NCBI GenBank assembly: GCA_964621075.1
Contig: CAZUKV010000001.1
Coordinates: 24,144 to 88,143 of the forward strand
DNA from: an uncultured bacterium
Lineage (GTDB): Bacteria > Macinerneyibacteriota > Macinerneyibacteria > Macinerneyibacteriales > Macinerneyibacteriaceae
DNA length: 64,000 nucleotides
Direction: 5' to 3'
Under the pieces are notes generated by a model. The model was not told the DNA's origin. It did not search any database and worked only from the letters and a program-made list of their open reading frames with translations. Every line of letters begins with the position of its first letter. Position 1 is the stretch's first letter. The position numbers and the translations under genes are program-made. Below are positions 9,794 to 57,208 of this stretch, in pieces.

Positions 9794-10024
9794 TTATTCC
9801 TCCTTGCTCTTTATCGTAATTGCAAGATCGGGACAGTGTGTTGAACACTGCATGCACCCAATGCAATCATCTTCTCTAACAGCTTTTACTATTACAGTTC
9901 CTTTATCATTAATCTTGTCAGCTTTTTCAAAAACATTCTTGGGACAAATTTTCTGACAAATATAACATCCCTTGCACCAATCTTCACGTATGATAACCTC
10001 ATAAGACATTTTAACTCCTTTCAT
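9794..10024 (-). CDS. 2-oxoacid:ferredoxin oxidoreductase delta subunit (2x[4Fe-4S] ferredoxin), cluster 1
   Basis: Two CxxCxxCxxxCP motifs in 76 aa. Immediately precedes the alpha subunit (OorD-like position). Confidence 0.8.
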   Translation of the reverse strand: MKGVKMSYEVIIREDWCKGCYICQKICPKNVFEKADKINDKGTVIVKAVREDDCIGCMQCSTHCPDLAITIKSKEE

Positions 10025-45115: not shown

Positions 45116-45703
45116 CTACCCTTTAATTATAAAATAAAAAAACCCCCATTTATTAAAAGTAAGTGTAGGAGCTAAAAAATATTTTTTAAATTTTCTTAAA
45201 CTAACCATTATTATTTTATTATTCCATCGTGGATCATATATATATAATTTATTTTTTGAATATCCAACTATTAAACTAAAATGCCCTTGAAATGTTCGGT
45301 CTATTTTTTTTTCAGGATACCAATTAAAAAAAACCGGATATCCATCGTTTAAATAACTTTTGATTAGATTAATATTTTTCTTATACAAATTATTACTGAG
45401 GATAGCTCTACTTTTATATCCATAGTTGTATCTATATTCAATATTATAGCCTTTTTCTTTTAATTTTCTTAAAATTTCAAGGCTGTATGCTCCTCTTTTT
45501 ACTTTTTTTAAATCAAATATTTTATTGTGAACATAATCCTGGTTATATTTTTCCCCAATTTTTTCAAGCATAATAGCAACTACAGTTTCTCCGCAAAAAT
45601 CTTTTTTCTGTTTTATTGGATTATAGTCTAAAAATAAAGAAAGTGAAAAAATGTTGCTAATCAAAATTAGAAAATATAAAATTAATATTAATTTCTTTTG
45701 CAT
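45116..45703 (-). CDS. Secreted papain-like (C39-like) cysteine peptidase domain protein
   Basis: Signal peptide. Candidate catalytic Cys (FCGETV) and His (GHFSLIVGY) at the spacing seen in C39-like domains. Weak call. Confidence 0.35.
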   Translation of the reverse strand: MQKKLILILYFLILISNIFSLSLFLDYNPIKQKKDFCGETVVAIMLEKIGEKYNQDYVHNKIFDLKKVKRGAYSLEILRKLKEKGYNIEYRYNYGYKSRAILSNNLYKKNINLIKSYLNDGYPVFFNWYPEKKIDRTFQGHFSLIVGYSKNKLYIYDPRWNNKIIMVSLRKFKKYFLAPTLTFNKWGFFYFIIKG

Positions 45704-46584
45704 ACGAGACTTTTTTTATCAACCCCAATTTTATCAGCAATAACAGAACATTTAGCCATTAGTAAAAAAAACAAGTTTTTATTTTTTTCTTCGCTAAGAG
45801 ATTCAAAATTGCCCTGTCCTTTTGCAATAATAACATCAGAATCATTAAAAATTTCTTGATATTTTTCGGTTACATTATCCATTATAGTACCGGGAGCATT
45901 ATCCCCATTAGAGATAAGTTCTGCATAATTATCCATTCCAACCTGTAAGCCATCTTCCATTGTTATATCATTTATTACTGGATATCCTCTAACACCATAG
46001 TAGTATTTATTTATTTGTGGAAATCTTTTTTTTAAAACCCTAATAAAAATTTTGTCAAAAACAATCTCCCCACAATTATCTCCAATAATCATAACAGAGG
46101 AACTTTCTCTCAAATACTTTTTCAATAAATTACTATCATCAACTTTTAATGATTTTTTTTCAATATCATCTATTGTATTAAAAACTTCTTCTTCTTTTAA
46201 AGAGTGCTTTACTCCAAAATCAATTATATTTCCTGAAATTACCATCTTGACTAAATATTTAAAATTTTTTTTATCCAATTTTTTATAGAGATCTTTCTCC
46301 ATTTCAAGAATTTTCTCGTTGTAATATTTTTTTTTCTTTTTGTAGGGATCTTCGGTATTAATTAATTTATATATTACAGGATATATTCTTTTTGCAAGAT
46401 GTGGCGGGGTGTTTTTATTATAATCAATATCTTTTAAAATGGTTAAAATTTTTTTTATCATTTCTTCAATATCCTTGTTTTTCAAATTGCTATCTTCAGC
46501 TAAATTTAAAGCCTGGTTGATAAAACATGGAACACACTTAAAAGTTGTTTTCATTTTCACTCCTATCCTTTTATTATTACTCAC
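45688..46584 (-). CDS. DUF89 family protein (ARMT1-like damage-control phosphatase)
   Basis: N-terminal CVPCF motif plus GDNCGE and KGQGNFE motifs characteristic of DUF89. Confidence 0.65.
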   Translation of the reverse strand: MSNNKRIGVKMKTTFKCVPCFINQALNLAEDSNLKNKDIEEMIKKILTILKDIDYNKNTPPHLAKRIYPVIYKLINTEDPYKKKKKYYNEKILEMEKDLYKKLDKKNFKYLVKMVISGNIIDFGVKHSLKEEEVFNTIDDIEKKSLKVDDSNLLKKYLRESSSVMIIGDNCGEIVFDKIFIRVLKKRFPQINKYYYGVRGYPVINDITMEDGLQVGMDNYAELISNGDNAPGTIMDNVTEKYQEIFNDSDVIIAKGQGNFESLSEEKNKNLFFLLMAKCSVIADKIGVDKKSLVCKRN

Positions 46585-46594
46585 CAGGTAAATA

Positions 46595-47362
46595 TTATAT
46601 AATTTTTTTCAGAAAGGCAAGAACTCCATCAATATTTTGAAAACTATATGAACTAAAAGAAGATTCTTTACCCTTAGGAGATATATAAATTGATTTAAAT
46701 CCTCTTTTGGATAATGGTATAATATCATTATCCTCATCATTCCCAATTATTAAACAATTTTTGTTTTTTACCGACAAATAATTTAATTTTTTTTCAAGTA
46801 ACTCATATATTTGAGGGTCGGGTTTTGAAATGCCAATTTTATAAGAAAAAAAAACCAAATCAGAATTAAAATAATAATCAAAAGAACGTTCTAAAAAATC
46901 ATTTAATATTCGTTTTGTATAAAATTGAGCATTTGACATTATTCCCTGGTATAAATTTTTTGACCTTATATAGTTTAAAATCTTTTCTACATTCTTTCCA
47001 ATCTCTACGGGATTGACTGCTTTTTCAAAAATAATTGCTATTTTTTCCAGCGTAGCTCTTCTAAAATTTTTTTGAAACTTTTTTTTCATAAATATATCCC
47101 ATAGTTTAATTATATTAATTTCTGGACTTATTATATTTTCATTCTTTTTTTTCTTTCTTTTTTGTAATTCTTTAACAAGATTTCTGTATAATTTTTCGCC
47201 CTTATCGGGGTCAATTTCAAGATTTAAAAAATCACCAATCCGCTGAAACCCTTTTTTAAATTTTGAATATTTCCCAGGATCAACAGGAATCTCCATATTA
47301 GCAGAATAGAGAATAGTACCATAAATATCCCAGATAACAGCTTCAACCTTCATATTATCCAA
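46595..47362 (-). CDS. HAD-superfamily hydrolase (candidate glycosyl-3-phosphoglycerate phosphatase)
   Basis: HAD motif I AVIWDIYGTIL and a C-terminal GNDEDND motif IV-like segment. Confidence 0.65.
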   Translation of the reverse strand: MDNMKVEAVIWDIYGTILYSANMEIPVDPGKYSKFKKGFQRIGDFLNLEIDPDKGEKLYRNLVKELQKRKKKKNENIISPEINIIKLWDIFMKKKFQKNFRRATLEKIAIIFEKAVNPVEIGKNVEKILNYIRSKNLYQGIMSNAQFYTKRILNDFLERSFDYYFNSDLVFFSYKIGISKPDPQIYELLEKKLNYLSVKNKNCLIIGNDEDNDIIPLSKRGFKSIYISPKGKESSFSSYSFQNIDGVLAFLKKII

Positions 47363-48608
47363 AAATAGTTCTTATTATCTGTTTTAAATTATATTTTAAT
47401 ACATCATAAGAAAAATATTTTTTACCAATCCTGTAATTATTTTCAACCATCTTTTTTCTGTAATTTTTATCTTCTAAAACCTTTTTTACTTTTTCAACAT
47501 TTTTATCCGTCAGATAATCATTCATTGAAATTGTGTTAAATCCCTTGGGTTCAATATCCTTTATATATATACTGTATCGATTAACAAGTATTGGTTTTTT
47601 GAACAATATTGCTTCTAAAAAAGCATTTCCAAAACCTTCAAAAGATGAAGGATAGGTAACAAAATCAGCATGAGGATAAACATCCCATAGAGTATATATT
47701 CTTTCCCAATTTTTTCTATACTTGTTTGGTTTATGAAGTTTGTTATTAATATAATAAACATCAATACCTTCCCTTTTTGCATAATCAATTATCCAGTTAT
47801 AATAATCCAAACCTTCATCTGAAGAGGAATGTGTAATCACCAGTTTAATCTTATCATTATCCAATCTTCGAACAAGATCAATTGAGTGTTCTATTCCTTT
47901 ACGAGCCACAATTCTTGTTGGTTGTAAAAAAATAATATCATCATCTTTAAAATCAAAATCTTTTTTAAAATTGGCTCTTTTTTCTTTATCAATATTAATC
48001 TCTCTATCAAAATTTATAACATTAGGAATAATTTTAGAAGCTATCCCTCTTCTGGCAGCAAGCTGCTGCTGGGCGATAGAATTAATAACTACATGATGAA
48101 TAAAAGGGAGATTTGGAGGAAATGACATTGATAGATAATCCTGGAAAGCATTAATTAGATAACGCCTTCTCTCCCAGGCAAAATCGTGATGGTGCCCTAT
48201 TGTTGGAATTCCTCTTTCAATAATAACTTCTGTTAACGCTAACCCCAGAGGTATATTCATTGGAATACTCAGAGCATTTTCCACAATAACTAAATCAATT
48301 TTATACTTATCCAAAAAAATATTTAATCTAATTTTTAATAATTCTTTTATCTCATCTATTTTTTTTGTCATTTCAGGAGGTCTAATTTTAGTTGACTGTA
48401 ATTTATCATTAATACTTTTTATTTCAGGATGCTTAAAAAAAGCTTTTTCACATAAATAGCTTTTTGATGAAGGCTTTTCCAGCTCTCCTGCAAACCAGTA
48501 TATCCTATGCCCGAACTGTTTTAAAACATCAGCCCATTTATCAGCCTCAAGTGAAACACCATCAAGTCCTGCAAATCGCGTACCAATAAAACCAATATTT
48601 AATTCCAA
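47355..48608 (-). CDS. GT4-type glycosyltransferase (GT-B fold)
   Basis: C-terminal GT4 hallmark EGFGNAFLEA (E-x7-E region) and the N-terminal domain of GT-B glycosyltransferases. Confidence 0.6.
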   Translation of the reverse strand: MELNIGFIGTRFAGLDGVSLEADKWADVLKQFGHRIYWFAGELEKPSSKSYLCEKAFFKHPEIKSINDKLQSTKIRPPEMTKKIDEIKELLKIRLNIFLDKYKIDLVIVENALSIPMNIPLGLALTEVIIERGIPTIGHHHDFAWERRRYLINAFQDYLSMSFPPNLPFIHHVVINSIAQQQLAARRGIASKIIPNVINFDREINIDKEKRANFKKDFDFKDDDIIFLQPTRIVARKGIEHSIDLVRRLDNDKIKLVITHSSSDEGLDYYNWIIDYAKREGIDVYYINNKLHKPNKYRKNWERIYTLWDVYPHADFVTYPSSFEGFGNAFLEAILFKKPILVNRYSIYIKDIEPKGFNTISMNDYLTDKNVEKVKKVLEDKNYRKKMVENNYRIGKKYFSYDVLKYNLKQIIRTIFG

Positions 48609-48621
48609 AATACCCTCCTAA

Positions 48622-50106
48622 TTAATAATTTAACAATAATCTATAATATTCTATTTTTAAAAAAGATTTCAAAATTGATTTATCAATTTTTTTATCACGT
48701 TGTTTCTTAACAGCTTCATTATCTTCTTTTATTTTCATGACTATATCCTTAATTCTTTGGGTGTTTTTTTTCAATGAAAAATTGTCTAATTCAACTCCCT
48801 GTTTTAAGTATCCACTTGATAATTTTCGAATGTTTTTTTCTATTTCGCTATTTAATTCTTTAATTTCTGCGAAATTTTCCTTATTTAAAATTTTCCACTG
48901 GTTTTCAACATCAAGGTAGGAGAAATCAACTATATTTTTATCAATTTTTTTATATATGTCTTCTTTTAGGATCTCTTTTCCTCTTTTGTTTAAATCAATC
49001 ATATTGAGATAATTTTTATATTTTTTAATTACATCATCTTTCATCCTATCATCTAATTTAATATTTAAAGAACTGTAATAACTGTATTTGGGAATATTTT
49101 TGAAATCTTGAACGATATCAATCTCTCTAACATAAAAATTTTTATTATATTTTTTTGATTCTAAAAATATCAGGCCAAAACCCTCCAGAACGGATGAAGA
49201 AAAAAACAAATCACAACCACGAATAAGATTATTATAAATTCCTTTATATTTTTTTGATACTGACCAGATACCCCTGATTTTATTTTTTTTGAAAACATCT
49301 TTTACAATTTTTTCATATTTTTTTTCTTTTCGAGAATTCGAAGGAAGCGTAACAAAAAGAAAACTTTTTTCTACAATAATATTTATTAATGCCGCTTCGA
49401 GGATATTTTTCCTTCTTATAGTTCGAACAGGATATAGCAGTAATAAATCATCGTTTCTTATTAAACATCTATCTTCAATTTTATTGATAATTTTTTTTCT
49501 TTCTTCCTGTTTTTTAAAATTTTCTTTTTTTGTATTAATGGCATTTGGAAGATAAAATATTTTTGTCTCAGGAATTCCAGCCTGTAATAATCTTTTTAAA
49601 TCCCCTTTATTAATTGTAATATAGTAAATATTTTTATCTACTGGATATAAAGAATTGGAAATATATTTATTTAAAAATGAAAGATTGTTAATTCTACCAC
49701 ATTCGGGAAAATCATGAATTTGAAACAATATTTTCATATTTTGTTCAAGAGCAAGTTCAATAATTGCCTCTGTAAATGGAGGATTTTTACCCAGATTATA
49801 GTTATGAACCCAAATAATAGAATCAAAATCAATATAATTCAACAAATAGTTTTTTATTTCTGATTTATAAGAATAAAAACTTTCTTGCGTAAGCTCATTT
49901 TTATATAAATATTTTAATTCAGGTACATCATGAAATTTAATATTTTCTTTATTTAGAAGATCTTGAATACCTTCTATCCCCATTTTTTTTGATCCATAAA
50001 GATGGATTTCATATTCACTAAATAATGAATTAGAAATATTTTTAATTACACTCGTAACCCCACCTTTTATATAATGATAGTGTATAATTGAAACTTTCTT
50101 TTTCAT
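48622..50106 (-). CDS. Large GT-B glycosyltransferase-like protein (GT4-like core, EGFGLIFLES)
   Basis: HYHYIKGGV N-terminus and a C-terminal EGFG motif. The roughly 200-aa C-terminal extension is uncharacterised. Confidence 0.5.
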   Translation of the reverse strand: MKKKVSIIHYHYIKGGVTSVIKNISNSLFSEYEIHLYGSKKMGIEGIQDLLNKENIKFHDVPELKYLYKNELTQESFYSYKSEIKNYLLNYIDFDSIIWVHNYNLGKNPPFTEAIIELALEQNMKILFQIHDFPECGRINNLSFLNKYISNSLYPVDKNIYYITINKGDLKRLLQAGIPETKIFYLPNAINTKKENFKKQEERKKIINKIEDRCLIRNDDLLLLYPVRTIRRKNILEAALINIIVEKSFLFVTLPSNSRKEKKYEKIVKDVFKKNKIRGIWSVSKKYKGIYNNLIRGCDLFFSSSVLEGFGLIFLESKKYNKNFYVREIDIVQDFKNIPKYSYYSSLNIKLDDRMKDDVIKKYKNYLNMIDLNKRGKEILKEDIYKKIDKNIVDFSYLDVENQWKILNKENFAEIKELNSEIEKNIRKLSSGYLKQGVELDNFSLKKNTQRIKDIVMKIKEDNEAVKKQRDKKIDKSILKSFLKIEYYRLLLNY

Positions 50107-50112
50107 TTATTT

Positions 50113-51090
50113 TTACCTTTTTTCCCTGTTAAATTTTAATCTATATTCTGGAATCTTTATCATTGGAGGCCTTTCTATTTTCATAATTTTTGTTTTTTTC
50201 ATAATATGATCGCCTTCTCTTAATTCAATACTTACATGATCCTCATTCATATCAGTTTTTAATTTAATTTTATTATTTTTATCCAATCTATCCAAAGCTG
50301 TTTTTAATAAAGCAAAAGCCATTTTGCTTAAAGCCTGGATATTCTGATTGCGATGGATCCTCATGTCAAGATCCACCTGCCCGATTTTATCTATACCATA
50401 ATTTTCATAAATATCAATTAAATGAGCCGTTTCAACCCCATATCCAACAGCAAAAGATAATTTTTCAAGCAAATCTCTTCTTCCTGCATATTCTCCGCTC
50501 AAAGGCTGAATTATTGTTGCTAATTCAGGATAAAAAGTTGAAAACATCGGCCTGGTCTGAATTTCAGTAACCCTTCCTCCACCGGACGGCTGAAATGATT
50601 TTTTGCCGGTTATTGGTCTTTCATAAAAAGCCTTTACATAAGATAAATTATCATTTGTGAGAAGCGCTCCTACAAGACCATAAACAAATTTAGGATGTAT
50701 GTTGTCTATATCAGCATCTATCCAAACTATTATATCTCCATCAAGAACATAAAGACTTTTCCATAAATTTTCCCCCTTACCCTTATAAAATCCATATTTG
50801 GGGAGGATATTTTTTGAAGTATAAACTTTTGCCCCGTATTCATTTGCTATTTCTCTGGTTTTATCTTTGGAGCCTGAATCAATAACTACAATTTCATCAA
50901 GCAAGGGAAATTTATCCATTAATTCATTCTTTATAATTAAAACTTCTTTTCCTATTGTTTTTTCTTCATTGAGTGTTGGGAAAGCAAGTGAAATTTTCAA
51001 ATTCTTTTTCTCTTTTAATTTTACAAGTTTGTTTATATCCTTGAATTTTTCATGATGGAATGTTGATTTTAAAATTTTTTTACTGCTCAT
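50113..51090 (-). CDS. gpgS: Glucosyl-3-phosphoglycerate synthase family (GpgS/MpgS-like, GT81) glycosyltransferase
   Basis: Colinear similarity to mycobacterial GpgS as recalled from memory: GKGENLWKSL, WIDADIDNIHPKFVYGLVGALL, VKAFYERP, GGGRVTE, QPLSGEYAG, GYGVE, QVDLDMRIHRNQ. Confidence 0.8.
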   Translation of the reverse strand: MSSKKILKSTFHHEKFKDINKLVKLKEKKNLKISLAFPTLNEEKTIGKEVLIIKNELMDKFPLLDEIVVIDSGSKDKTREIANEYGAKVYTSKNILPKYGFYKGKGENLWKSLYVLDGDIIVWIDADIDNIHPKFVYGLVGALLTNDNLSYVKAFYERPITGKKSFQPSGGGRVTEIQTRPMFSTFYPELATIIQPLSGEYAGRRDLLEKLSFAVGYGVETAHLIDIYENYGIDKIGQVDLDMRIHRNQNIQALSKMAFALLKTALDRLDKNNKIKLKTDMNEDHVSIELREGDHIMKKTKIMKIERPPMIKIPEYRLKFNREKR

Positions 51091-52250
51091 TCTTCCTCTT
51101 TCTTTTCAAAAAAAGATATTCCTTTTTTTAAAACCTTTAATACCTGTTTAATGCCAACAATTATTGAATCTTTAGTTATATACTCATCATCTATCTTAAT
51201 TTGTCCTTCTGCTATACCCAAAGATACTGTTGGTATATTTTTCTGAAGTAAAACAGCTGCTTCATCTCTTATAACTTTTAAAGAAGACTCAATAGAATAT
51301 TGCTTATGAATTTTAATAATTTCATCAATGAAAGGATGATTTGCCATAAAATAATTTGCTGAAGAATGTCCGACTAATTCCAGCTGTATTTTTGTATCCA
51401 GTTCCCTTGACATTTTATTAATTGTAGAAGTTAATATTTGATTTTCATATTCAAGATACTGGCTTTTTCTGCTCAAAAGTTCCAGCTTCATAACCCCTTC
51501 ACTGGGAACTGCTTCAACTTTAGATTTTGATTTAATATCAATGATATTAATGAAAGTACATGATTTTTCAGGCCACCCAATGCTTTTTAAGCGAGCTCCA
51601 ATCTCTGTTAAAATATCCATTGCAGATAATTTATTTGGACAATCACAAATATTTATCAAATCAATAGGTTTGGTTTTTACCCAGATCTTATAAAGATATT
51701 TTCCAAGCGATTTGTACCCAATATCTCCAAGAGATATACTATCAATATCAAGTGCAAAAACAATATCATCATTACAATTAGATAAAAAATAATTTAAGGT
51801 TTTAAAATTTTCTTCGATGTTAGAAAAATCCAAAAATAAGAAAATAATATTATATTTAAATTCAATTTTATACTTAAATAAAAAATCAATTAAATTTAAA
51901 ACAGCAGTTACTTTTAAAGAATTATCAATTATCCCCCTTCCATGCATCTTATCCTTATCCAGCTGTATTAACCTGTCAACCCTGGAAATCTTTTTTAAAT
52001 TCATAGGGACCATTACCAGGACTGATTTCTTTGTTAAACTGGGAGAGTGAAAATATTCTACCATGATATTTCCCACATCATCTCTTTCTATCTTGGGAAC
52101 CTCCATTTCATGCAGCCTATTAATTATAAATTCCTTATGAGAATCAGGATTATCGCTCGAAAATGGTAGCTGGTTATAAAGTATTGTATCTGTTAGAATA
52201 TTTTCTTTTAAATCTTTAATATCATTTATCTTGCTTTCAAAATCATCCAT
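51087..52250 (-). CDS. Divergent M20/M28-like zinc-peptidase homologue (possibly non-catalytic), first gene of the operon
   Basis: HGRGIIDN resembles the M20 GRGxxDxKG motif. The other metal ligands are not obvious. AGGAGA RBS. Confidence 0.4.
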   Translation of the reverse strand: MDDFESKINDIKDLKENILTDTILYNQLPFSSDNPDSHKEFIINRLHEMEVPKIERDDVGNIMVEYFHSPSLTKKSVLVMVPMNLKKISRVDRLIQLDKDKMHGRGIIDNSLKVTAVLNLIDFLFKYKIEFKYNIIFLFLDFSNIEENFKTLNYFLSNCNDDIVFALDIDSISLGDIGYKSLGKYLYKIWVKTKPIDLINICDCPNKLSAMDILTEIGARLKSIGWPEKSCTFINIIDIKSKSKVEAVPSEGVMKLELLSRKSQYLEYENQILTSTINKMSRELDTKIQLELVGHSSANYFMANHPFIDEIIKIHKQYSIESSLKVIRDEAAVLLQKNIPTVSLGIAEGQIKIDDEYITKDSIIVGIKQVLKVLKKGISFFEKKEEE

Positions 52251-52279
52251 TATTTCTCCTAACCTATTTATATATAATA

Positions 52280-52307
52280 ATTATATAATTCTCAATTGAT
52301 ATTTCAA
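52280..52307 (-). promoter_or_regulatory. Putative sigma70 promoter (TTGAAA-N16-TATAAT on the minus strand) for the 52250 to 44197 operon; -35 lies inside repeat copy 1
   Basis: Minus strand: TTGAAA (plus 52307-52302), 16-nt spacer, TATAAT (plus 52285-52280). The ATG is at 52250. Confidence 0.5.
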
Positions 52308-52359
52308 CACTTTATATACCAGGTTTTTAGATTAAAAACTTGACACTTAATTAGAATAT
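52299..52359. repeat. 61-bp perfect repeat, copy 1 (contains palindrome GTTTTTA-N3-TAAAAAC at 52323-52339)
   Basis: Identical to 55067-55127: ATATTTCAACACTTTATATACCAGGTTTTTAGATTAAAAACTTGACACTTAATTAGAATAT. Confidence 0.9.
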
Positions 52360-52382
52360 AAGAAATTATCTTCTATCATTTG

Positions 52383-53000
52383 TTATAATTGTTTAATAAA
52401 ATCAAAAAAATCATCAATAGGATTCACTTGATAGTTATCTTTTTTATATAAATTAATAATTTTTTTAGATTTGTTATCAACTAGTAAGAGAATAGGACCA
52501 GTGTAAATTTTATTTTTTTTGAACCATTTGTACCTATCACAGTAATATACTTCTTTTTTTATGAAATATTTATTTTTCTTTATTTTCATATTTATTTTAT
52601 TATAACCAATTATTAAAACCTTAACATTTTTAAAATCTAAAATATTTAAATACTTTACCATTTCATGAATACACTGTCCGCAATAAGATTTAGGAATTAC
52701 CATTACTAATAAATACTGATAGATAGGTCTCTCACAATAAATGAAAGTATCATCTTTTAGTCTTTTAAACTTAGAAAAGTTTAATTTTCTCCCTAATAAC
52801 TGATATCTATCTTTTTGATACTTATATCTTTTTTTGTAAAAATTTTTATAAATTTTTAGTTTTTTATTCTTTTTGTAAAAATAAAGTAATAGCATAAATA
52901 AACAAAGAACAATTACAACCTTTGATAAATTACTCATGCATAAATATTTTCCGCTTGATATTTTCAACAAATAAATCGAGCTCAAAATTATAAAATTCAT
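52383..53000 (-). CDS. Membrane-anchored/secreted protein with a CxxC motif (thioredoxin-like?), function unknown
   Basis: N-terminal hydrophobic segment. YCGQCIHEM CxxC. Paralogous in layout to 52930-53508. Confidence 0.3.
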   Translation of the reverse strand: MNFIILSSIYLLKISSGKYLCMSNLSKVVIVLCLFMLLLYFYKKNKKLKIYKNFYKKRYKYQKDRYQLLGRKLNFSKFKRLKDDTFIYCERPIYQYLLVMVIPKSYCGQCIHEMVKYLNILDFKNVKVLIIGYNKINMKIKKNKYFIKKEVYYCDRYKWFKKNKIYTGPILLLVDNKSKKIINLYKKDNYQVNPIDDFFDFIKQL

Positions 53001-53508
53001 TATTTTCCCTAATTACTAAATCTATAACATTATTTGATAATTTATCATACAATAAAAATACTGGACCTGTTTTTATGCCATTATTTTTTAGCAATCCATT
53101 CTTCTTTAACAAAAAAGAAGGATACTTTTTTCCTGTTAAAATAAAAGATTCTCCAACATTTTCTCGAAACTTAATTATTGCAACTTCTTTTGAAATAATA
53201 CTACTGATTTTTTGTCTAAAATCAAAAAGACATGAATTGCAATTTAATTTTGATAATAATACAAATAAAATATACCTTTTATTTATATTAGAATAACAAA
53301 AATGATCACTTCTTTTTTCAGGAGTATATCTTATATAATTAAATTTTTTTCTGGTTTCAAAAATTTTAACTAATTTAAACTCTTTCAATATTAAATTTTT
53401 ATAATCAGCAGTAAGATTTTGTGTTTTTTGTTTTTTACAACCCCCAATAAATAAAATACCAAAAACTATAGACATAAAAAATGTTTTTACATATATTTTT
53501 TTTTTCAT
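52930..53508 (-). CDS. Lipoprotein with a CxxC motif (thioredoxin-like?), function unknown
   Basis: Signal peptide with lipobox (IGGC). NCNSCLF CxxC. Similar size and layout to the downstream gene. Confidence 0.3.
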   Translation of the reverse strand: MKKKIYVKTFFMSIVFGILFIGGCKKQKTQNLTADYKNLILKEFKLVKIFETRKKFNYIRYTPEKRSDHFCYSNINKRYILFVLLSKLNCNSCLFDFRQKISSIISKEVAIIKFRENVGESFILTGKKYPSFLLKKNGLLKNNGIKTGPVFLLYDKLSNNVIDLVIRENNEFYNFELDLFVENIKRKIFMHE

Positions 53509-54572
53509 TGTTTATCCTTGAGAAATTCATATGTTTTTATAACGACTGTATTATCATTTTTTGTTAATCTATCAGGAATAAAAGTTTTCAATATCCCATC
53601 TAAATTATAACTTACCTCTACTTCCCTATAAAACTTTTCGTTTTCTTTAAAAGATTTTTTTTCTTTTAACTTTTTAATTAATTTACCATTTATATCCACT
53701 ATTATTTTTTTATCTATCAACATCAAACTTCCCTCTTTGTTAAAATATATTGGAGTTTTGTAGTAATTTTTTTCTATATGAGAATTGATTTCTCTTAAAA
53801 AATTACCATTAAGATCATATACATCTATAGATTTTTCACATTTTGCATTTTTGAAAGGATCTTTGCTTAACGCTTTAGAACTTGTATGCCATACTTCATT
53901 TGCAATATAGATCCTATCATTTTTCAACACTGATGGTTCCCAGGCAACATATGAAGTATGTTTAAATTTATCATATTTATTAATTATCTTGAAATTTTTA
54001 TCAAGAATAAAATTCTTATAATTCCCTTTATAATTACTATTGTTAAAAGTATAAATTCTATTATTAACAAAAGTCATTTGACTTAAACCAGACATACTCT
54101 CATACATTAGCAAAAACGACTTCAAATGTTTGATTTTTTTGCTTTCTATTTTGTAAATATTAAATCTATTTAAAACAATATCATAAGTTAAAATTTTATT
54201 TTTACTCAAAAACAAAAAATCTGAAATAGACAGAAAATCTCCTGGTCCTTTTCCTCTATCCCCAGCTTTTCCAATAAATTTACCGTTTTGTTTATTAAAA
54301 ATATACACTGATGTATAATTACCTCTTGCTAATAGTCCAATATACTTGTTATTTATTTTCAAACTAATGATATTCCCTAATCCAAACTCTAAGTATAGAA
54401 TATACTTATTTTGTAATGTAAAAAGATTCGTAAAATTTTCTGATTTTTTTATTCTTTTCAAATCTTTTTTTCTTATTGATACTCGATCTAACAATTTTTT
54501 TTCTTTCCTACAACTAAAATTAAAACCAAGAATTGCAACAAGACAACATAATAGAAAAATTTTTTTGTACAT
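53505..54572 (-). CDS. Lipoprotein, possibly a beta-propeller, function unknown
   Basis: Lipobox (FSC). Repeated ...Y...D/N...G... segments suggestive of beta-propeller blades. Weak call. Confidence 0.3.
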   Translation of the reverse strand: MYKKIFLLCCLVAILGFNFSCRKEKKLLDRVSIRKKDLKRIKKSENFTNLFTLQNKYILYLEFGLGNIISLKINNKYIGLLARGNYTSVYIFNKQNGKFIGKAGDRGKGPGDFLSISDFLFLSKNKILTYDIVLNRFNIYKIESKKIKHLKSFLLMYESMSGLSQMTFVNNRIYTFNNSNYKGNYKNFILDKNFKIINKYDKFKHTSYVAWEPSVLKNDRIYIANEVWHTSSKALSKDPFKNAKCEKSIDVYDLNGNFLREINSHIEKNYYKTPIYFNKEGSLMLIDKKIIVDINGKLIKKLKEKKSFKENEKFYREVEVSYNLDGILKTFIPDRLTKNDNTVVIKTYEFLKDKQ

Positions 54573-54630
54573 AAGAAATCCTTTTCTGTTAATATATTTA
54601 ATTCAAAGGGGGAATCATTTTACATAATAT

Positions 54631-54939
54631 TTACCAGCACTGGAATGTTACATCACATTCTTTCATGTTTCCTTCATAACAATAATTCATTTTCCCAGTC
54701 CTTATAATTTCACTTCCATCCGGTGTCACTTCGATAACAACACAAGACATATATCCTAATTTATAAAAATCTCCAAATGCATCTCTTATACCCTGCCCAG
54801 AGCTTCCGCCTGGAAGCTCACCAGACACCCCATCTATTATCTCAATAAGTCTTCTGTTAGGAGATGTCTGGGCTTTAATAAGAGATAAACAAAAAAACAT
54901 AAAAAAAATCAATAATATAATAAATATTTTTTTATTCAT
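54631..54939 (-). CDS. Small secreted Cys-rich protein (102-aa precursor, mature form about 80 aa)
   Basis: Signal peptide ending ...LIKA. Five Cys in the mature part (C-terminal ...CYEGNMKECDVTFQCW). Confidence 0.5.
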   Translation of the reverse strand: MNKKIFIILLIFFMFFCLSLIKAQTSPNRRLIEIIDGVSGELPGGSSGQGIRDAFGDFYKLGYMSCVVIEVTPDGSEIIRTGKMNYCYEGNMKECDVTFQCW

Positions 54940-55046
54940 AACAACTCCTTTATAATTAAACTATATATTCACAGAATTCCCCCTACTATAATAATATAAC
55001 AAAAAAAAAAAATACAACATCTATTTTTTTAATTATAATTTTTGGT

Positions 55047-55075
55047 ATTATAAAAAAGTTATTATTATATTTCAA
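55047..55075 (-). promoter_or_regulatory. Putative sigma70 promoter (TTGAAA-N17-TATAAT on the minus strand) for the Cys-rich peptide gene; -35 lies inside repeat copy 2
   Basis: Minus strand: TTGAAA (plus 55075-55070), 17-nt spacer, TATAAT (plus 55052-55047). Same architecture as copy 1. Confidence 0.45.
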
Positions 55076-55127
55076 CACTTTATATACCAGGTTTTTAGAT
55101 TAAAAACTTGACACTTAATTAGAATAT
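55067..55127. repeat. 61-bp perfect repeat, copy 2, in the divergent intergenic region between the Cys-rich peptide gene and HU
   Basis: Identical to 52299-52359, including the 7-3-7 palindrome. Confidence 0.9.
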
Positions 55128-55192
55128 GTTAATCTTTTTTTCAGACATTACTATCTTATTAGTATTTAACAACATAACTTGCAGGAGGAATA

Positions 55193-55468
55193 ATGACAAA
55201 GAATGATTTGAGTGAAAAAATATGGAATAGATATGAAGAACTTACAAAAAAAGAATCAAAGGAAATTATTGACCTTTTGATGAAAGAAATAAAAAATGCT
55301 TTGAAAAATAATGATAGTGTGGAATTGAGGGGATTTGGTACTTTCAAAACAAAAATTAGAAAAGCCCGTACAGCAAGAAACCCGCATACAGGGGAACAAA
55401 TTGAAGTTCCAAGAAAAAAAGTTCCTTATTTTAAACCCTCACCGAAATTTAAAGAAAAAGTGAATTAA
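55193..55468 (+). CDS. HU/IHF family DNA-binding protein
   Basis: ELRGFGTFKTKIRKARTARNPHTGEQIEVP is a canonical HU arm. Confidence 0.85.
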   Translation: MTKNDLSEKIWNRYEELTKKESKEIIDLLMKEIKNALKNNDSVELRGFGTFKTKIRKARTARNPHTGEQIEVPRKKVPYFKPSPKFKEKVN

Positions 55469-55479
55469 GGAGGTGTAGT

Positions 55480-55575
55480 ATGAGCTCTGTAAAGAAAAAA
55501 AGAAAAAAGAAAATGAACAAACATAAAAGGAAAAAAAGATCAAGAAAAAACAGGCATAAGAAAAAGAAAAAATAA
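55480..55575 (+). CDS. 31-aa extremely basic Lys/Arg-rich peptide (MSSVKKKRKKKMNKHKRKKRSRKNRHKKKKK), apparently co-transcribed with HU
   Basis: AAGGAGG RBS 6-7 nt upstream of the ATG and only 11 nt after the HU stop. Followed by a strong terminator. Not in the ORF track because it is short. Confidence 0.45.
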   Translation: MSSVKKKRKKKMNKHKRKKRSRKNRHKKKKK

Positions 55576-55597
55576 ATAATCAACCTTATATAAATAT

Positions 55598-55635
55598 AAA
55601 ACACCCAAAATTTTTTGGGTGTTTTCCTATTTTTG
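55598..55635 (+). terminator. Rho-independent terminator after the HU-basic peptide unit
   Basis: AACACCCAAAA-tt-TTTTGGGTGTT hairpin followed by TTCCTATTTTTG. Confidence 0.7.
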
Positions 55636-55684
55636 TTAATATTCCTTGCAATAACAATTTTTTTGTATTATATTTTACCTGATT

Positions 55685-57085
55685 ATGAATAATTATACTT
55701 TAATTTACAAAGATAATAAAAATAATTATACAATACCCCTTTTACTTTCCAAACATAATTATGATTTTAGTACTACATATTCAGAAGAATATCTAATTGA
55801 AAATGCAAAAAATAACAAATTGGTTATTATGGACCTATCAACTTTCAATCATAAAAAATTATCAATTCTGGAAGAAATAATTAACAATGATATTTCTATA
55901 ATTATAGTCGCTGATAAAATATCAAATGAGAACTTAAAAAAACTTATAAAATACAAAATAAAATACTATTTTGATCGACCATTTAATGAAAAAGAATTTA
56001 TTTCAACAATAAAAAAATCCTTTTCAGAAATAAAATTAAAAAATAAAAATGAACAACTGGTAAATAAATTAAAAGAAAAAATAAACAAGTTTCAACTATT
56101 AAATAAAACTTCTAAAATGATCAATTCAAAACTCGACATAAACATTATTCTGAAAAAATTAATGAAAAATATTGGCGATATTGTAGATGCTGAAGCCTGG
56201 ACATTGTTCAGTTATAATAAAGAAACAAATAAGTTAATATTTAAGTATGTTGTAGGTGAAAAATCAGAACAATTACTCGGAAAATCATTAAATGTAGACC
56301 AGGGAATTGTTGGATGGGCAGCTTCAAATCAAGAAAGTATACTTGTAAAAAATGTTAATAAAGATAGTAGATTTTATAAATATTTTGATAAAAAAACAAA
56401 TTTTAAAACCAAAAGTTTAATCTGTGTACCAATTATTTATAGAAATGAACTTCTTGGAGTAGTTGAAGTTGTAAACAAAAAACACGGACGATCATTTACT
56501 GAGGAAGATCTAAATATTATGGAAATTCTTGTAGATAATGCTGCCATCGCTATAAAAAACTCATATCTACTTGAACAAATTTATCAAATTACCCTTAAAG
56601 ACCATCTTACCGATTTATATAACTTTCGGAAACTAAATAATATAATTGACAAAAACTATAAGAATAAAAAACCCTTCGCTTTAATTTTCATGGATTTAGA
56701 TGACTTTAAAAAAGTTAATGATAACTTCGGTCATGATTATGGTAGCAAAGCTTTAATTGAATTTTCAGAAATATTGAAAACTATTATAGATAATAATGAT
56801 TATGCTTTTAGATATGGTGGGGATGAATTTATTGTCATTTTAGAAGATAGAGATCTAAATTTAGCCATCGATTTCGCCAAAACAATTTTAAAAAAAGTTA
56901 AAAACCATACATTTTTAAAAAAAGATAATCTTCAGGTTAAATTAACTTTAAGTGTAGGAATTTCACATTATCCGCTAATATCTAAAAAGAAAAAAGATAT
57001 CTTAACTCAAGCTGACCAGGCTATGTATAAAGTAAAAAAAAGAAAAAAAGATAATTATGCAATTTTTGGAAAACCAATCAATTAA
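55685..57085 (+). CDS. GGDEF diguanylate cyclase with N-terminal receiver-like and central GAF domains
   Basis: GGDEF domain (RYGGDEFIVIL, FMDLDDFKKVND). GAF-like segment around GIVGWAASNQESILV. Confidence 0.8.
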   Translation: MNNYTLIYKDNKNNYTIPLLLSKHNYDFSTTYSEEYLIENAKNNKLVIMDLSTFNHKKLSILEEIINNDISIIIVADKISNENLKKLIKYKIKYYFDRPFNEKEFISTIKKSFSEIKLKNKNEQLVNKLKEKINKFQLLNKTSKMINSKLDINIILKKLMKNIGDIVDAEAWTLFSYNKETNKLIFKYVVGEKSEQLLGKSLNVDQGIVGWAASNQESILVKNVNKDSRFYKYFDKKTNFKTKSLICVPIIYRNELLGVVEVVNKKHGRSFTEEDLNIMEILVDNAAIAIKNSYLLEQIYQITLKDHLTDLYNFRKLNNIIDKNYKNKKPFALIFMDLDDFKKVNDNFGHDYGSKALIEFSEILKTIIDNNDYAFRYGGDEFIVILEDRDLNLAIDFAKTILKKVKNHTFLKKDNLQVKLTLSVGISHYPLISKKKKDILTQADQAMYKVKKRKKDNYAIFGKPIN

Positions 57086-57133: not shown

Positions 57134-57208
57134 ACGGGGTGTAGCGCAGTCCGGCAGCGCACATGCATGGGGTGCATGGTGTCGGAGGTTCAAATCCTCT
57201 CACCCCGA
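57134..57208 (+). tRNA. tRNA-Pro (anticodon GGG); coordinates +/-2 nt
   Basis: Cloverleaf: acceptor CGGGGTG/CACCCCG, D arm GCGC-AGTCCGGCA-GCGC, anticodon arm CATGC-AT GGG GT-GCATG, T arm GGAGG-TTCAAAT-CCTCT, discriminator A. G37 follows anticodon GGG. Confidence 0.8.

Follow-up and report, generated by a model that had tools for sequence, protein, structure and literature searches.

The subject of this analysis is a block of four genes on the minus strand of a 64,000-nt window (the whole stretch of DNA that was analysed) from a Candidatus Mcinerneyibacterium metagenome-assembled genome (MAG) of the candidate phylum Macinerneyibacteriota. The organism is uncultivated and salt-loving; the guanine-plus-cytosine content of the window is about 27%, and its strand skew is strong. 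Four co-directional open reading frames (ORFs) span positions 54939-52383 and encode, in this order, a small secreted peptide with four cysteines in its mature part, an NHL-type beta-propeller lipoprotein and two thioredoxin-like proteins with one CxxC motif each, referred to here as CxxC-A and CxxC-B. All four appear in the ORF list at the coordinates given in the initial annotation, in whose title the order of the genes was reversed (lipoproteins, then peptide); the peptide gene is the first of the block.

The peptide gene (54631-54939, minus strand) encodes a precursor of 102 amino acids (aa), with AGGAG situated 6-7 nt 5' of its ATG. The next gene (53505-54572, minus strand) specifies the 355-aa propeller lipoprotein of the Pfam family DUF5128 (lipobox FNFSC). 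The CxxC-A gene (52930-53508, minus strand), whose start overlaps the propeller stop by 4 nt, encodes a thioredoxin-like lipoprotein of 192 aa (motif CNSC, lipobox FIGGC), and the CxxC-B gene (52383-52937, minus strand) encodes its paralogue, a membrane-anchored thioredoxin-like protein of 184 aa (motif CGQC). The start of CxxC-B was placed at the ATG at 52937 rather than at 53000, because the resulting 8-nt overlap with the upstream stop is repeated in L005 (a conspecific scaffold of 120 kb with which the block and its flanks were compared), and because this start fits the N-termini of all 17 representatives of the family. On both sides the block is bordered by a copy of one 61-bp element: copy 2 (55067-55127, minus strand), the upstream border, lies 5' of the peptide gene, and copy 1 (52299-52359, minus strand), the downstream border, lies 5' of an operon for an M20-like protein and glycosyltransferases. 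The flanks are formed by the divergent HU gene (55193-55468, plus strand) and by this minus-strand operon. Exact protein matches assign the window to the MAG named above, with HU as HMA68886.1 and SurE as HMA68455.1. The four ORFs are regarded as genuine genes and not as chance reading frames, because they have conspecific orthologues with ratios of nonsynonymous to synonymous substitution rates (dN/dS) of 0.15-0.52 and their order is conserved on unrelated contigs.

CxxC-A and CxxC-B are of similar size and were described as paralogues with a single CxxC motif in the initial annotation, in agreement with an alignment of 101 aa in which 25% of the residues are identical (E=1e-5). When 1.84 billion proteins were searched exhaustively with CxxC-B, 17 cluster representatives were returned, all of 173-202 aa bar one 70-aa fragment. 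When CxxC-A is included in the family alignment (19 sequences), the only invariant positions besides the initiator Met are C-x-x-C and G-P, which correspond in CxxC-B to C86/C89 and to G147-P148, the putative cis-Pro. The family profile matches Bacillus ResA in the PDB (E=3.5e-5), with CxxC falling on CEPC and G-P on the cis-Pro loop. The fold was tested on a structural model of CxxC-B, CxxC-A being covered by paralogy. The AlphaFold model made from the family alignment (predicted local distance difference test, pLDDT, 91.6; predicted template modelling score, pTM, 0.81) consists of a transmembrane or stalk helix followed by a thioredoxin fold, where C86/C89 stand at the N-terminus of helix 87-99 and G147-P148 precede strand 149-154. 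In a Foldseek comparison with the PDB this model matched FetE, ResA, TlpA, CcmG, SdbA and StoA with probability 1.00 and target-normalised TM-scores of 0.55-0.72; Etrx1 and then peroxiredoxins followed. Matched singly against Pfam, 7 of 18 family members gave AhpC-TSA (best 1.1e-5) and 3 of 18 gave Redoxin. The CxxC-A orthologue in L005 (45% identity) keeps CNSC.

The expected thioredoxin fold is thus supported by the model, the profile and the structural matches, and the earlier statement that recognisable catalytic motifs are lacking does not hold for the CxxC proteins, since their invariant CxxC and G-P coincide in the alignment with the active site of ResA. CxxC-B lacks a lipobox and is anchored instead by a transmembrane helix at its N-terminus (AlphaFold builds one long helix over residues 3-47), so that of the three proteins once called lipoproteins the propeller and CxxC-A retain the name. 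Both CxxC proteins are predicted to be thioredoxin-fold proteins of the TlpA/ResA/CcmG type, tethered to the membrane outside the cytoplasm. Their single-sequence matches in Pfam, NCBIfam and the PDB (Adeno_IVa2, SUa-2TM, and poxin at E ~0.03) were set aside as noise, because family profile and structure point to ResA/TlpA; the similarity of CxxC-A (52930-53508) to poxvirus poxin/B2 (E ~0.03) was judged to be due to chance on the same grounds.

A tract of ten A residues (A10) follows directly after the CxxC-A start codon (53496-53505), and one metagenome contig, L004, has nine (A9, ~1103-1115). Phase variation through this tract was considered and rejected: with A9, translation from an ATG farther upstream, within the propeller gene, yields the same lipoprotein with an extended N-terminus. 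The gene is not switched off by this variant, which is tolerated; A9 could also be an assembly error.

The 355-aa protein was suspected to be propeller-like, and it matches Pfam DUF5128 (PF17170, "6-bladed beta-propeller") above threshold (44 bits vs. a cutoff of 22.9, E=2e-11, residues 63-217). A profile built from nine members of its family matches the NHL domains of Thin (2.4e-17), TRIM71 (1e-15), TRIM2 (2e-14) and Brat (7e-11) in the PDB over several blades, as well as the exported protein BF0058 of B. fragilis (4raa, E=1.9e-8); with a profile of three alleles TRIM2 is still matched (E=1.9e-4). Across the nine homologues GKGPG and D131 are invariant, and no Cys is conserved. The lipobox FNFSC ends at residue 21. 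From these matches the protein is predicted to be an NHL-type DUF5128 beta-propeller lipoprotein. Structural matches of its low-confidence AlphaFold model are to propellers only (TM-scores 0.3-0.5), including Bacteroides surface lipoproteins such as the B12-binding BT1954 and BT2095. When genome contigs were scanned for the propeller alignment or the M20-like neighbour, nothing matched, so that the species seems to be missing from the GTDB representatives; in metagenomes the propeller alignment gave three distant fragments only. No mention of DUF5128, NVEALA or Mcinerneyibacterium was found in the searchable literature.

The peptide precursor begins with MNKK and a hydrophobic core (residues 7-21, mean Kyte-Doolittle hydropathy 3.2), which together form a strong signal of Sec type in line with the secretion proposed initially; cleavage is plausible between IKA and Q. 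The C-terminus reads ...CYEGNMKECDVTFQCW. Five Cys had been counted, and the precursor does contain five; one of them, C17, lies inside the signal peptide at a position that is not conserved, and the mature part has four (C66, C87, C95 and C101). The approximate mature peptide (residues 26-102) has an isoelectric point (pI) of ~4.5 and a net charge of -4. It is the most conserved of the four products between the window and L005 alleles, and its last 30 residues are near-identical in the two. The peptide has no family match in Pfam or NCBIfam and does not match the NVEALA model; small "NVEALA" proteins presumably adjoin DUF5128 genes in Bacteroides. Word-indexed homologue searches with the peptide, CxxC-A and the propeller returned the query itself or conspecific alleles only.

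In the 5' leader of the peptide gene a run of 12 T (T12, 55001-55012) is followed ~17 nt later by a run of five or six G (~54978-54982). The corresponding leader of L005 (~9924-9959) keeps the T tract, which is T15 in L005 and L006, and both tract and G run persist though the surrounding DNA has diverged to ~70% identity; in three contigs of the window allele the length of the T tract is identical. A riboswitch or leader RNA was considered for this region, and no Rfam match was found in 52000-55800 except a chance rimP hit (E=0.65) outside the block.

The order peptide, propeller, thioredoxin-like protein is conserved in at least five other loci, two of them in the same species, which were reached via the contigs of distant CxxC-B relatives. 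Locus L017 encodes a small ORF of 87 aa, a DUF5128 protein of 358 aa and a thioredoxin-like protein of 200 aa; L018 contains two tandem modules (86/342/198 and 87/340/200 aa), L016 the final part of a module together with the beginning of the one that follows, and L009-L011 two small ORFs, two propellers and one thioredoxin-like protein. The homologous propellers of L009, L017 and L018 are recorded as DUF5128 too. In L007 and L018 the module is extended by a protein of ~353 aa, which combines an N-terminal glutaredoxin-like CxxC domain with a DsbD_2 (CcdA-like) membrane domain; the two versions share 40% identity, and that of L007 scores 28.6 bits against a Pfam DsbD_2 cutoff of 24.9. CcdA-like proteins are the usual electron suppliers of ResA/TlpA-type proteins. 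Proteins encoded beside the modules of L007 and L017 fall into clusters of at least 90% identity with proteins of the same Mcinerneyibacterium MAG in NCBI, and therefore the species carries at least three paralogous modules. A CcdA-like partner is, by this assignment, available in the genome from a paralogous module. No description of the three-gene module was found in curated libraries or the searchable literature.

The small ORFs of all modules have a signal-type N-terminus, and in seven of the eight the mature part is acidic (pI 4.2-5.0, net charge -2 to -6), the exception being the near-neutral L009a peptide (pI 6.7, net charge 0). Near the C-terminus five of the eight show the spacing C-x(9-20)-C-x(7-8)-C-x(3-5)-C, which the window peptide has in common with the peptides at the same position in L017, L016 and L018, and in several a Cys-Trp dipeptide stands at or near the C-terminus. 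The distances between the four retained Cys are about 20-21, 8 and 4-6. A profile of four peptides from outside the locus ranks the window peptide first among 805 six-frame ORFs of the window (E=0.0015); with the C-terminal 45 residues alone the E-value is 0.025. In L007 (3223-5968) the paralogous module with the CcdA-like protein is directly followed by two genes of the TldD/PmbA family. This protease family is known from the maturation of the peptide microcin B17, and by analogy a link between these genes and the Cys peptides is possible.

The block and its flanks have diverged to different degrees, the flanks being 97-98% identical in conspecific genomes. Proteins encoded in the flanks are 97-100% identical between the window and L005, and the products of the block are 72% (peptide), 66% (propeller), 45% (CxxC-A) and 43% (CxxC-B) identical. 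In bins of 200 nt, nucleotide identity is 94-100% in nearly every flank bin and 61-84% inside the block; the bins which hold the repeat copies have an intermediate value of 88%, and therefore the change of identity falls exactly at the repeats. The synonymous divergence (dS) amounts to 0.78-1.15 in the block and 0.06-0.14 in the flanks, with dN/dS of 0.15 for the peptide, 0.22 for the propeller, and 0.51 and 0.52 for the two thioredoxin-like proteins. Since dS is about 1 in the block as against about 0.1 in the flanks and dN/dS remains below 1, it follows that the alleles are of old age or were imported, have kept their function and are not just evolving quickly.

An empty form of the site is also observed in assemblies. 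In seven contigs the HU gene is linked to the M20-like gene through a single repeat copy, the spacer being 174 bp. These contigs are base-for-base equal to the window minus 52360-55127; they come from GCA_035312085.1, ENA MEGAHIT assemblies and four JGI metagenomes. Both forms were obtained from sample 3300007537 (L027 without the block, L002 with it) and from sample ERZ27257105 (L021 without, L004 with). There is a third propeller allele, P0006 (46% identical; no contig on record). As judged from these contigs, the locus exists in no fewer than three states (allele 1, allele 2 and empty), and the block is a recombination-delimited, exchangeable cassette with direct repeats at both borders and one copy at the empty site. 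No recombinase was found among the four block products in Pfam and NCBIfam, and no tRNA gene stands at a cassette border; the only one, for tRNA-Pro (57135-57208), is 2 kb away. Loss of the cassette is likely to proceed by homologous recombination between the repeats, and its replacement by recombination in the flanks. With its ancient alleles, its empty state and identical promoter-bearing repeats of 61 bp, the 2.8-kb cassette indicates how uncultivated populations could shuffle envelope functions in the absence of dedicated mobility genes.

The first two genes 3' of the cassette (51087-52250; 12683-13846 in L005) have a dS of 0.12-0.14 in comparison with 0.06-0.08 further off, and identity to L005 drops to 94% at the 5' end of the M20-like gene, which suggests that the swapped recombination tract reached into the operon. 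Contigs L001, L002 and L003, made by three different assemblers, all start at 55086, 20 nt short of the end of repeat copy 2. An effect of k-mers would be expected to vary from one assembler to another, and the shared start may reflect heterogeneity of the reads at this point.

The upstream repeat of the initial annotation is real: the two copies of the 61-bp element form a perfect direct repeat with a distance of 2768 bp, for which 0 matches are expected by chance. The two best sigma-70-like sites in 52100-55700 (11 of 12 consensus positions each) are located one at the promoter-proximal end of each copy, with -35 TTGAAA in the repeat and TATAAT 16-17 nt downstream in unique DNA; both are consensus matches only, and promoter-like sites in this AT-rich region are no more numerous than in shuffled sequence. 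The cassette site (55047-55075, minus strand) has a 17-nt spacer, and the copy-1 site has its -35 at 52307-52302 and its -10 (TATAAT) at 52285-52280. The stretch from the CxxC-B stop to repeat copy 1 and the downstream operon yielded no terminator-like site. Common control of the cassette and the glycosyltransferase operon, as read from these sites, is plausible. The repeat may be a recombination footprint as much as a regulatory device, because it also marks the exact borders of the present, absent or replaced cassette. The element is duplicated in L005 too, where both copies differ from those of the window by the same three substitutions; therefore the repeat copies stay alike within each genome. 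The repeat folds no better than shuffled sequence (z=0.04), and a metagenome scan for the full repeat gave no match.

Taken together, the block could be a dedicated envelope module which folds the peptide oxidatively and is carried as an exchangeable cassette; we give this reading an about even chance of being correct. The first gene would supply a Sec-exported acidic peptide of ~78 residues with four Cys at fixed spacing. Outside the cytoplasm, CxxC-A (as a lipoprotein) and CxxC-B (through its transmembrane anchor) could form or isomerise the two disulfides of the peptide, and the NHL-type propeller lipoprotein, working with the thioredoxin-like enzymes, could bind it as a scaffold, a chaperone or a stable or final partner. 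Electrons for isomerisation would then flow from the glutaredoxin-like and DsbD_2 (CcdA-like) membrane protein of the paralogous module. The cassette would be transcribed from its own copy of the 61-bp promoter element, which is also placed 5' of the glycosyltransferase operon, and in the population it could be gained, lost or replaced by recombination at or near this repeat. The link between peptide and redox partners proposed in the initial annotation is strengthened, in that the genes travel together in at least five other loci and the only conserved Cys outside the thioredoxin-like proteins are those of the peptide. Because the propellers have no conserved Cys, these four are the only conserved candidate substrate; that the thioredoxin-like proteins act on the peptide is what we infer. 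A precedent for a functional unit of the two folds is given by NHLRC2 and SOQ1, where conserved residues and a CxxC-type motif line the interface of a thioredoxin-like/NHL cleft (PMC6107167).

Several points weigh against this reading. The connection of the peptide with the thioredoxin-like proteins and the propeller is putative, and a peptide with only two disulfides might need no dedicated enzymes. Homology of the peptides across modules is weakly, if consistently, supported by their sequences. The CxxC proteins of the window do not match the thioredoxin-family models of Pfam and NCBIfam even at E<=1, and the AlphaFold model of the propeller, built with three sequences, is all-beta with a pLDDT of 53.7, residues 265-355 being below 50. 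No CcdA-like gene was found in the 64-kb window by tblastn. The block-less contigs are short-read assemblies.

Among known systems the closest are TlpA, ResA and CcmG (DsbE), which give the best sequence and structure matches of CxxC-B and share with it the thioredoxin fold, the CxxC at the N-terminus of helix alpha1, the cis-Pro loop and an N-terminal membrane or lipid anchor. They are supplied by CcdA/DsbD, and here a DsbD_2 (CcdA-like) protein is present in the paralogous modules. The proteins of the window differ from them in that they remain below every curated threshold, have dipeptides without Pro (GQ, NS) in the motif and belong to a tiny family (the 17 representatives mentioned above); their context is a small secreted peptide and an NHL propeller instead of cytochrome c maturation or copper-protein assembly. 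The propeller shares with the DUF5128 proteins (exported six-bladed propellers, mainly from Bacteroidota, e.g. BF0058) its family and a lipoprotein-type N-terminus, although the host belongs to another candidate phylum. The TlpA-like oxidoreductase and the NHL/DUF5128 propeller are of known kinds, and the peptide family and the cassette behaviour at this locus are new.

In NHLRC2 a thioredoxin-like domain and a six-bladed NHL propeller form a cleft with a CxxC-type motif which is thought to bind a partner (PMC6107167). The same two folds stand side by side in NHLRC2, plant SOQ1 and their prokaryotic homologues and in the block, fused in one chain there and encoded by separate genes here. The NHLRC2 motif is CC(I/V)NC (PMC6107167) as against CGQC and CNSC, and the sequence similarity between NHLRC2 and the window propeller (DUF5128) is negligible (E=0.14). 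No conserved neighbour genes were found for the bacterial homologues in the NHLRC2 study (PMC6107167), whereas the module of the window has a dedicated peptide gene. The pairing of the two folds as separate genes, with a likely substrate next door, could help to explain this pairing generally. The module ties three families (new four-Cys secreted peptides, DUF5128 propellers and a small divergent TlpA-like branch) into one recurring unit and gives a testable hypothesis for DUF5128.

Methylamine dehydrogenase clusters combine the same three kinds of products: a small Cys-rich exported subunit (MauA), a propeller (MauB) and a membrane-anchored thioredoxin-like CxxC protein (MauD) needed to make the small subunit. 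MauB is, however, seven-bladed and not of NHL type, and MauA carries 12 Cys as well as a quinone which the dihaem protein MauG makes from tryptophan; in the block there is no haem protein, no MauE and no context of amine oxidation. Quinone-cofactor enzymes (methylamine dehydrogenase, quinohaemoprotein amine dehydrogenase) were considered for the Cys/Trp-rich small subunit next to a propeller and were rejected, the block being without haem, radical-SAM and flavoprotein genes. An anti-phage defence system was rejected as well: the four proteins have no PADLOC match at E<=0.1.

The initial annotation had also allowed for a toxin or a bacteriocin-like product. In such a locus the Cys peptide would be antimicrobial, the thioredoxin-like proteins would be accessory enzymes (as PedC) and the propeller an immunity protein, and the diversity of the block would result from competition between strains. 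Deep allelic divergence and presence or absence at this site among conspecific genomes, several paralogous modules per genome and a stand-alone C39-like peptidase gene ~7 kb downstream (45116-45703) are consistent with it. Pore-forming bacteriocins are mostly cationic, however, and the mature peptides are acidic in all cases but L009a; moreover, the peptide is the best conserved of the four products, which is the opposite of toxin diversification. Class II bacteriocin clusters do contain dedicated thiol-disulfide oxidoreductases, such as PedC of pediocin PA-1 and those of thermophilins, beside a small exported Cys peptide (PMC4919988, PMC10059821), and they vary between strains. The block differs from these clusters in having a Sec-type signal in place of a double-glycine leader with an ATP-binding cassette (ABC)/C39 exporter, of which no gene is present in it, in lacking an immunity gene recognisable in Pfam and NCBIfam, and in the propeller lipoprotein as an obligatory partner. 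As far as these sequences allow, the acidity of the peptides, the lack of exporter and immunity genes and a peptide core that is highly conserved between alleles argue against a classical bacteriocin, and a toxin role, for which no specific support emerged, is unlikely. Diversity or loss could instead be imposed by phages or predators on a surface lipoprotein, with the peptide and the thioredoxin-like proteins serving its assembly. The three site states agree with such a variable surface cassette, and so do the highest dN/dS (~0.5) in the two membrane-tethered thioredoxin-like proteins and the similarity of the low-confidence propeller model to BT1954 and BT2095. Nevertheless, dN/dS is below 1 in all four genes and dS has risen tenfold too, so that the divergence reflects age or import of the alleles and not fast protein evolution alone; the constant presence of a four-Cys peptide is left unexplained, and surface exposure is itself putative. 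We consider this explanation rather unlikely.

The alleles could also be specificity groups of a peptide signal and its cognate propeller receptor, kept by balancing selection. Old alleles (dS ~1) within genomes that are ~98% identical would fit, since agr, comCD and other pherotype loci show the same pattern. In addition, NHL propellers are typically interaction domains (PMC6107167). Yet the block contains no kinase, regulator or other transduction component, and it is the thioredoxin-like proteins that differ most between alleles while the core of the peptide barely differs, which makes a pherotype-like system quite unlikely. The probability is smaller still that the thioredoxin-like proteins and the propeller form a general redox-repair unit of the envelope which acts on many damaged proteins, the small ORF being an unrelated passenger. 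TlpA-like proteins often have broad roles. The thioredoxin-like/NHL pairing is widespread, and the substrates of NHLRC2/SOQ1 homologues are not peptides encoded next door (PMC6107167). Against this stand a signal-bearing small ORF with the same Cys spacing in front of the propeller in five independent loci, the purifying selection on it, and presence or absence among conspecific genomes, with which a housekeeping role fits poorly.

Oxidative folding of the peptide by a dedicated module also admits a stronger version, which we regard as quite improbable. The propeller and the thioredoxin-like protein would be the catalytic or templating part of an unrecognised maturation pathway for Sec-exported peptides outside the cytoplasm, installing a defined pattern of cross-links (disulfides or possibly others based on Cys) in a four-Cys core which often ends in Cys-Trp. 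If true, this would be the first function for DUF5128, a family with many members in Bacteroidota, and it would define a new class of ribosomal peptides matured in the periplasm and carried on exchangeable cassettes.

The operon under repeat copy 1 (45116-52250, minus strand) opens with the M20-like protein, which is followed by a GT2 protein resembling glucosyl- or mannosyl-3-phosphoglycerate synthase, two GT1/GT4 glycosyltransferases, a HAD hydrolase and an ARMT1-like phosphatase; a stand-alone C39_2 peptidase and a metalloenzyme-superfamily protein are encoded in it as well. By gene content it looks like a pathway for glycosylated compatible solutes, which would fit a halophile, with the C39-like peptidase as an odd member. 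On the other side of the block, between the HU and GAF-GGDEF genes, a hairpin with a 12-bp stem and T runs on both sides (55598-55625) resembles a bidirectional terminator.

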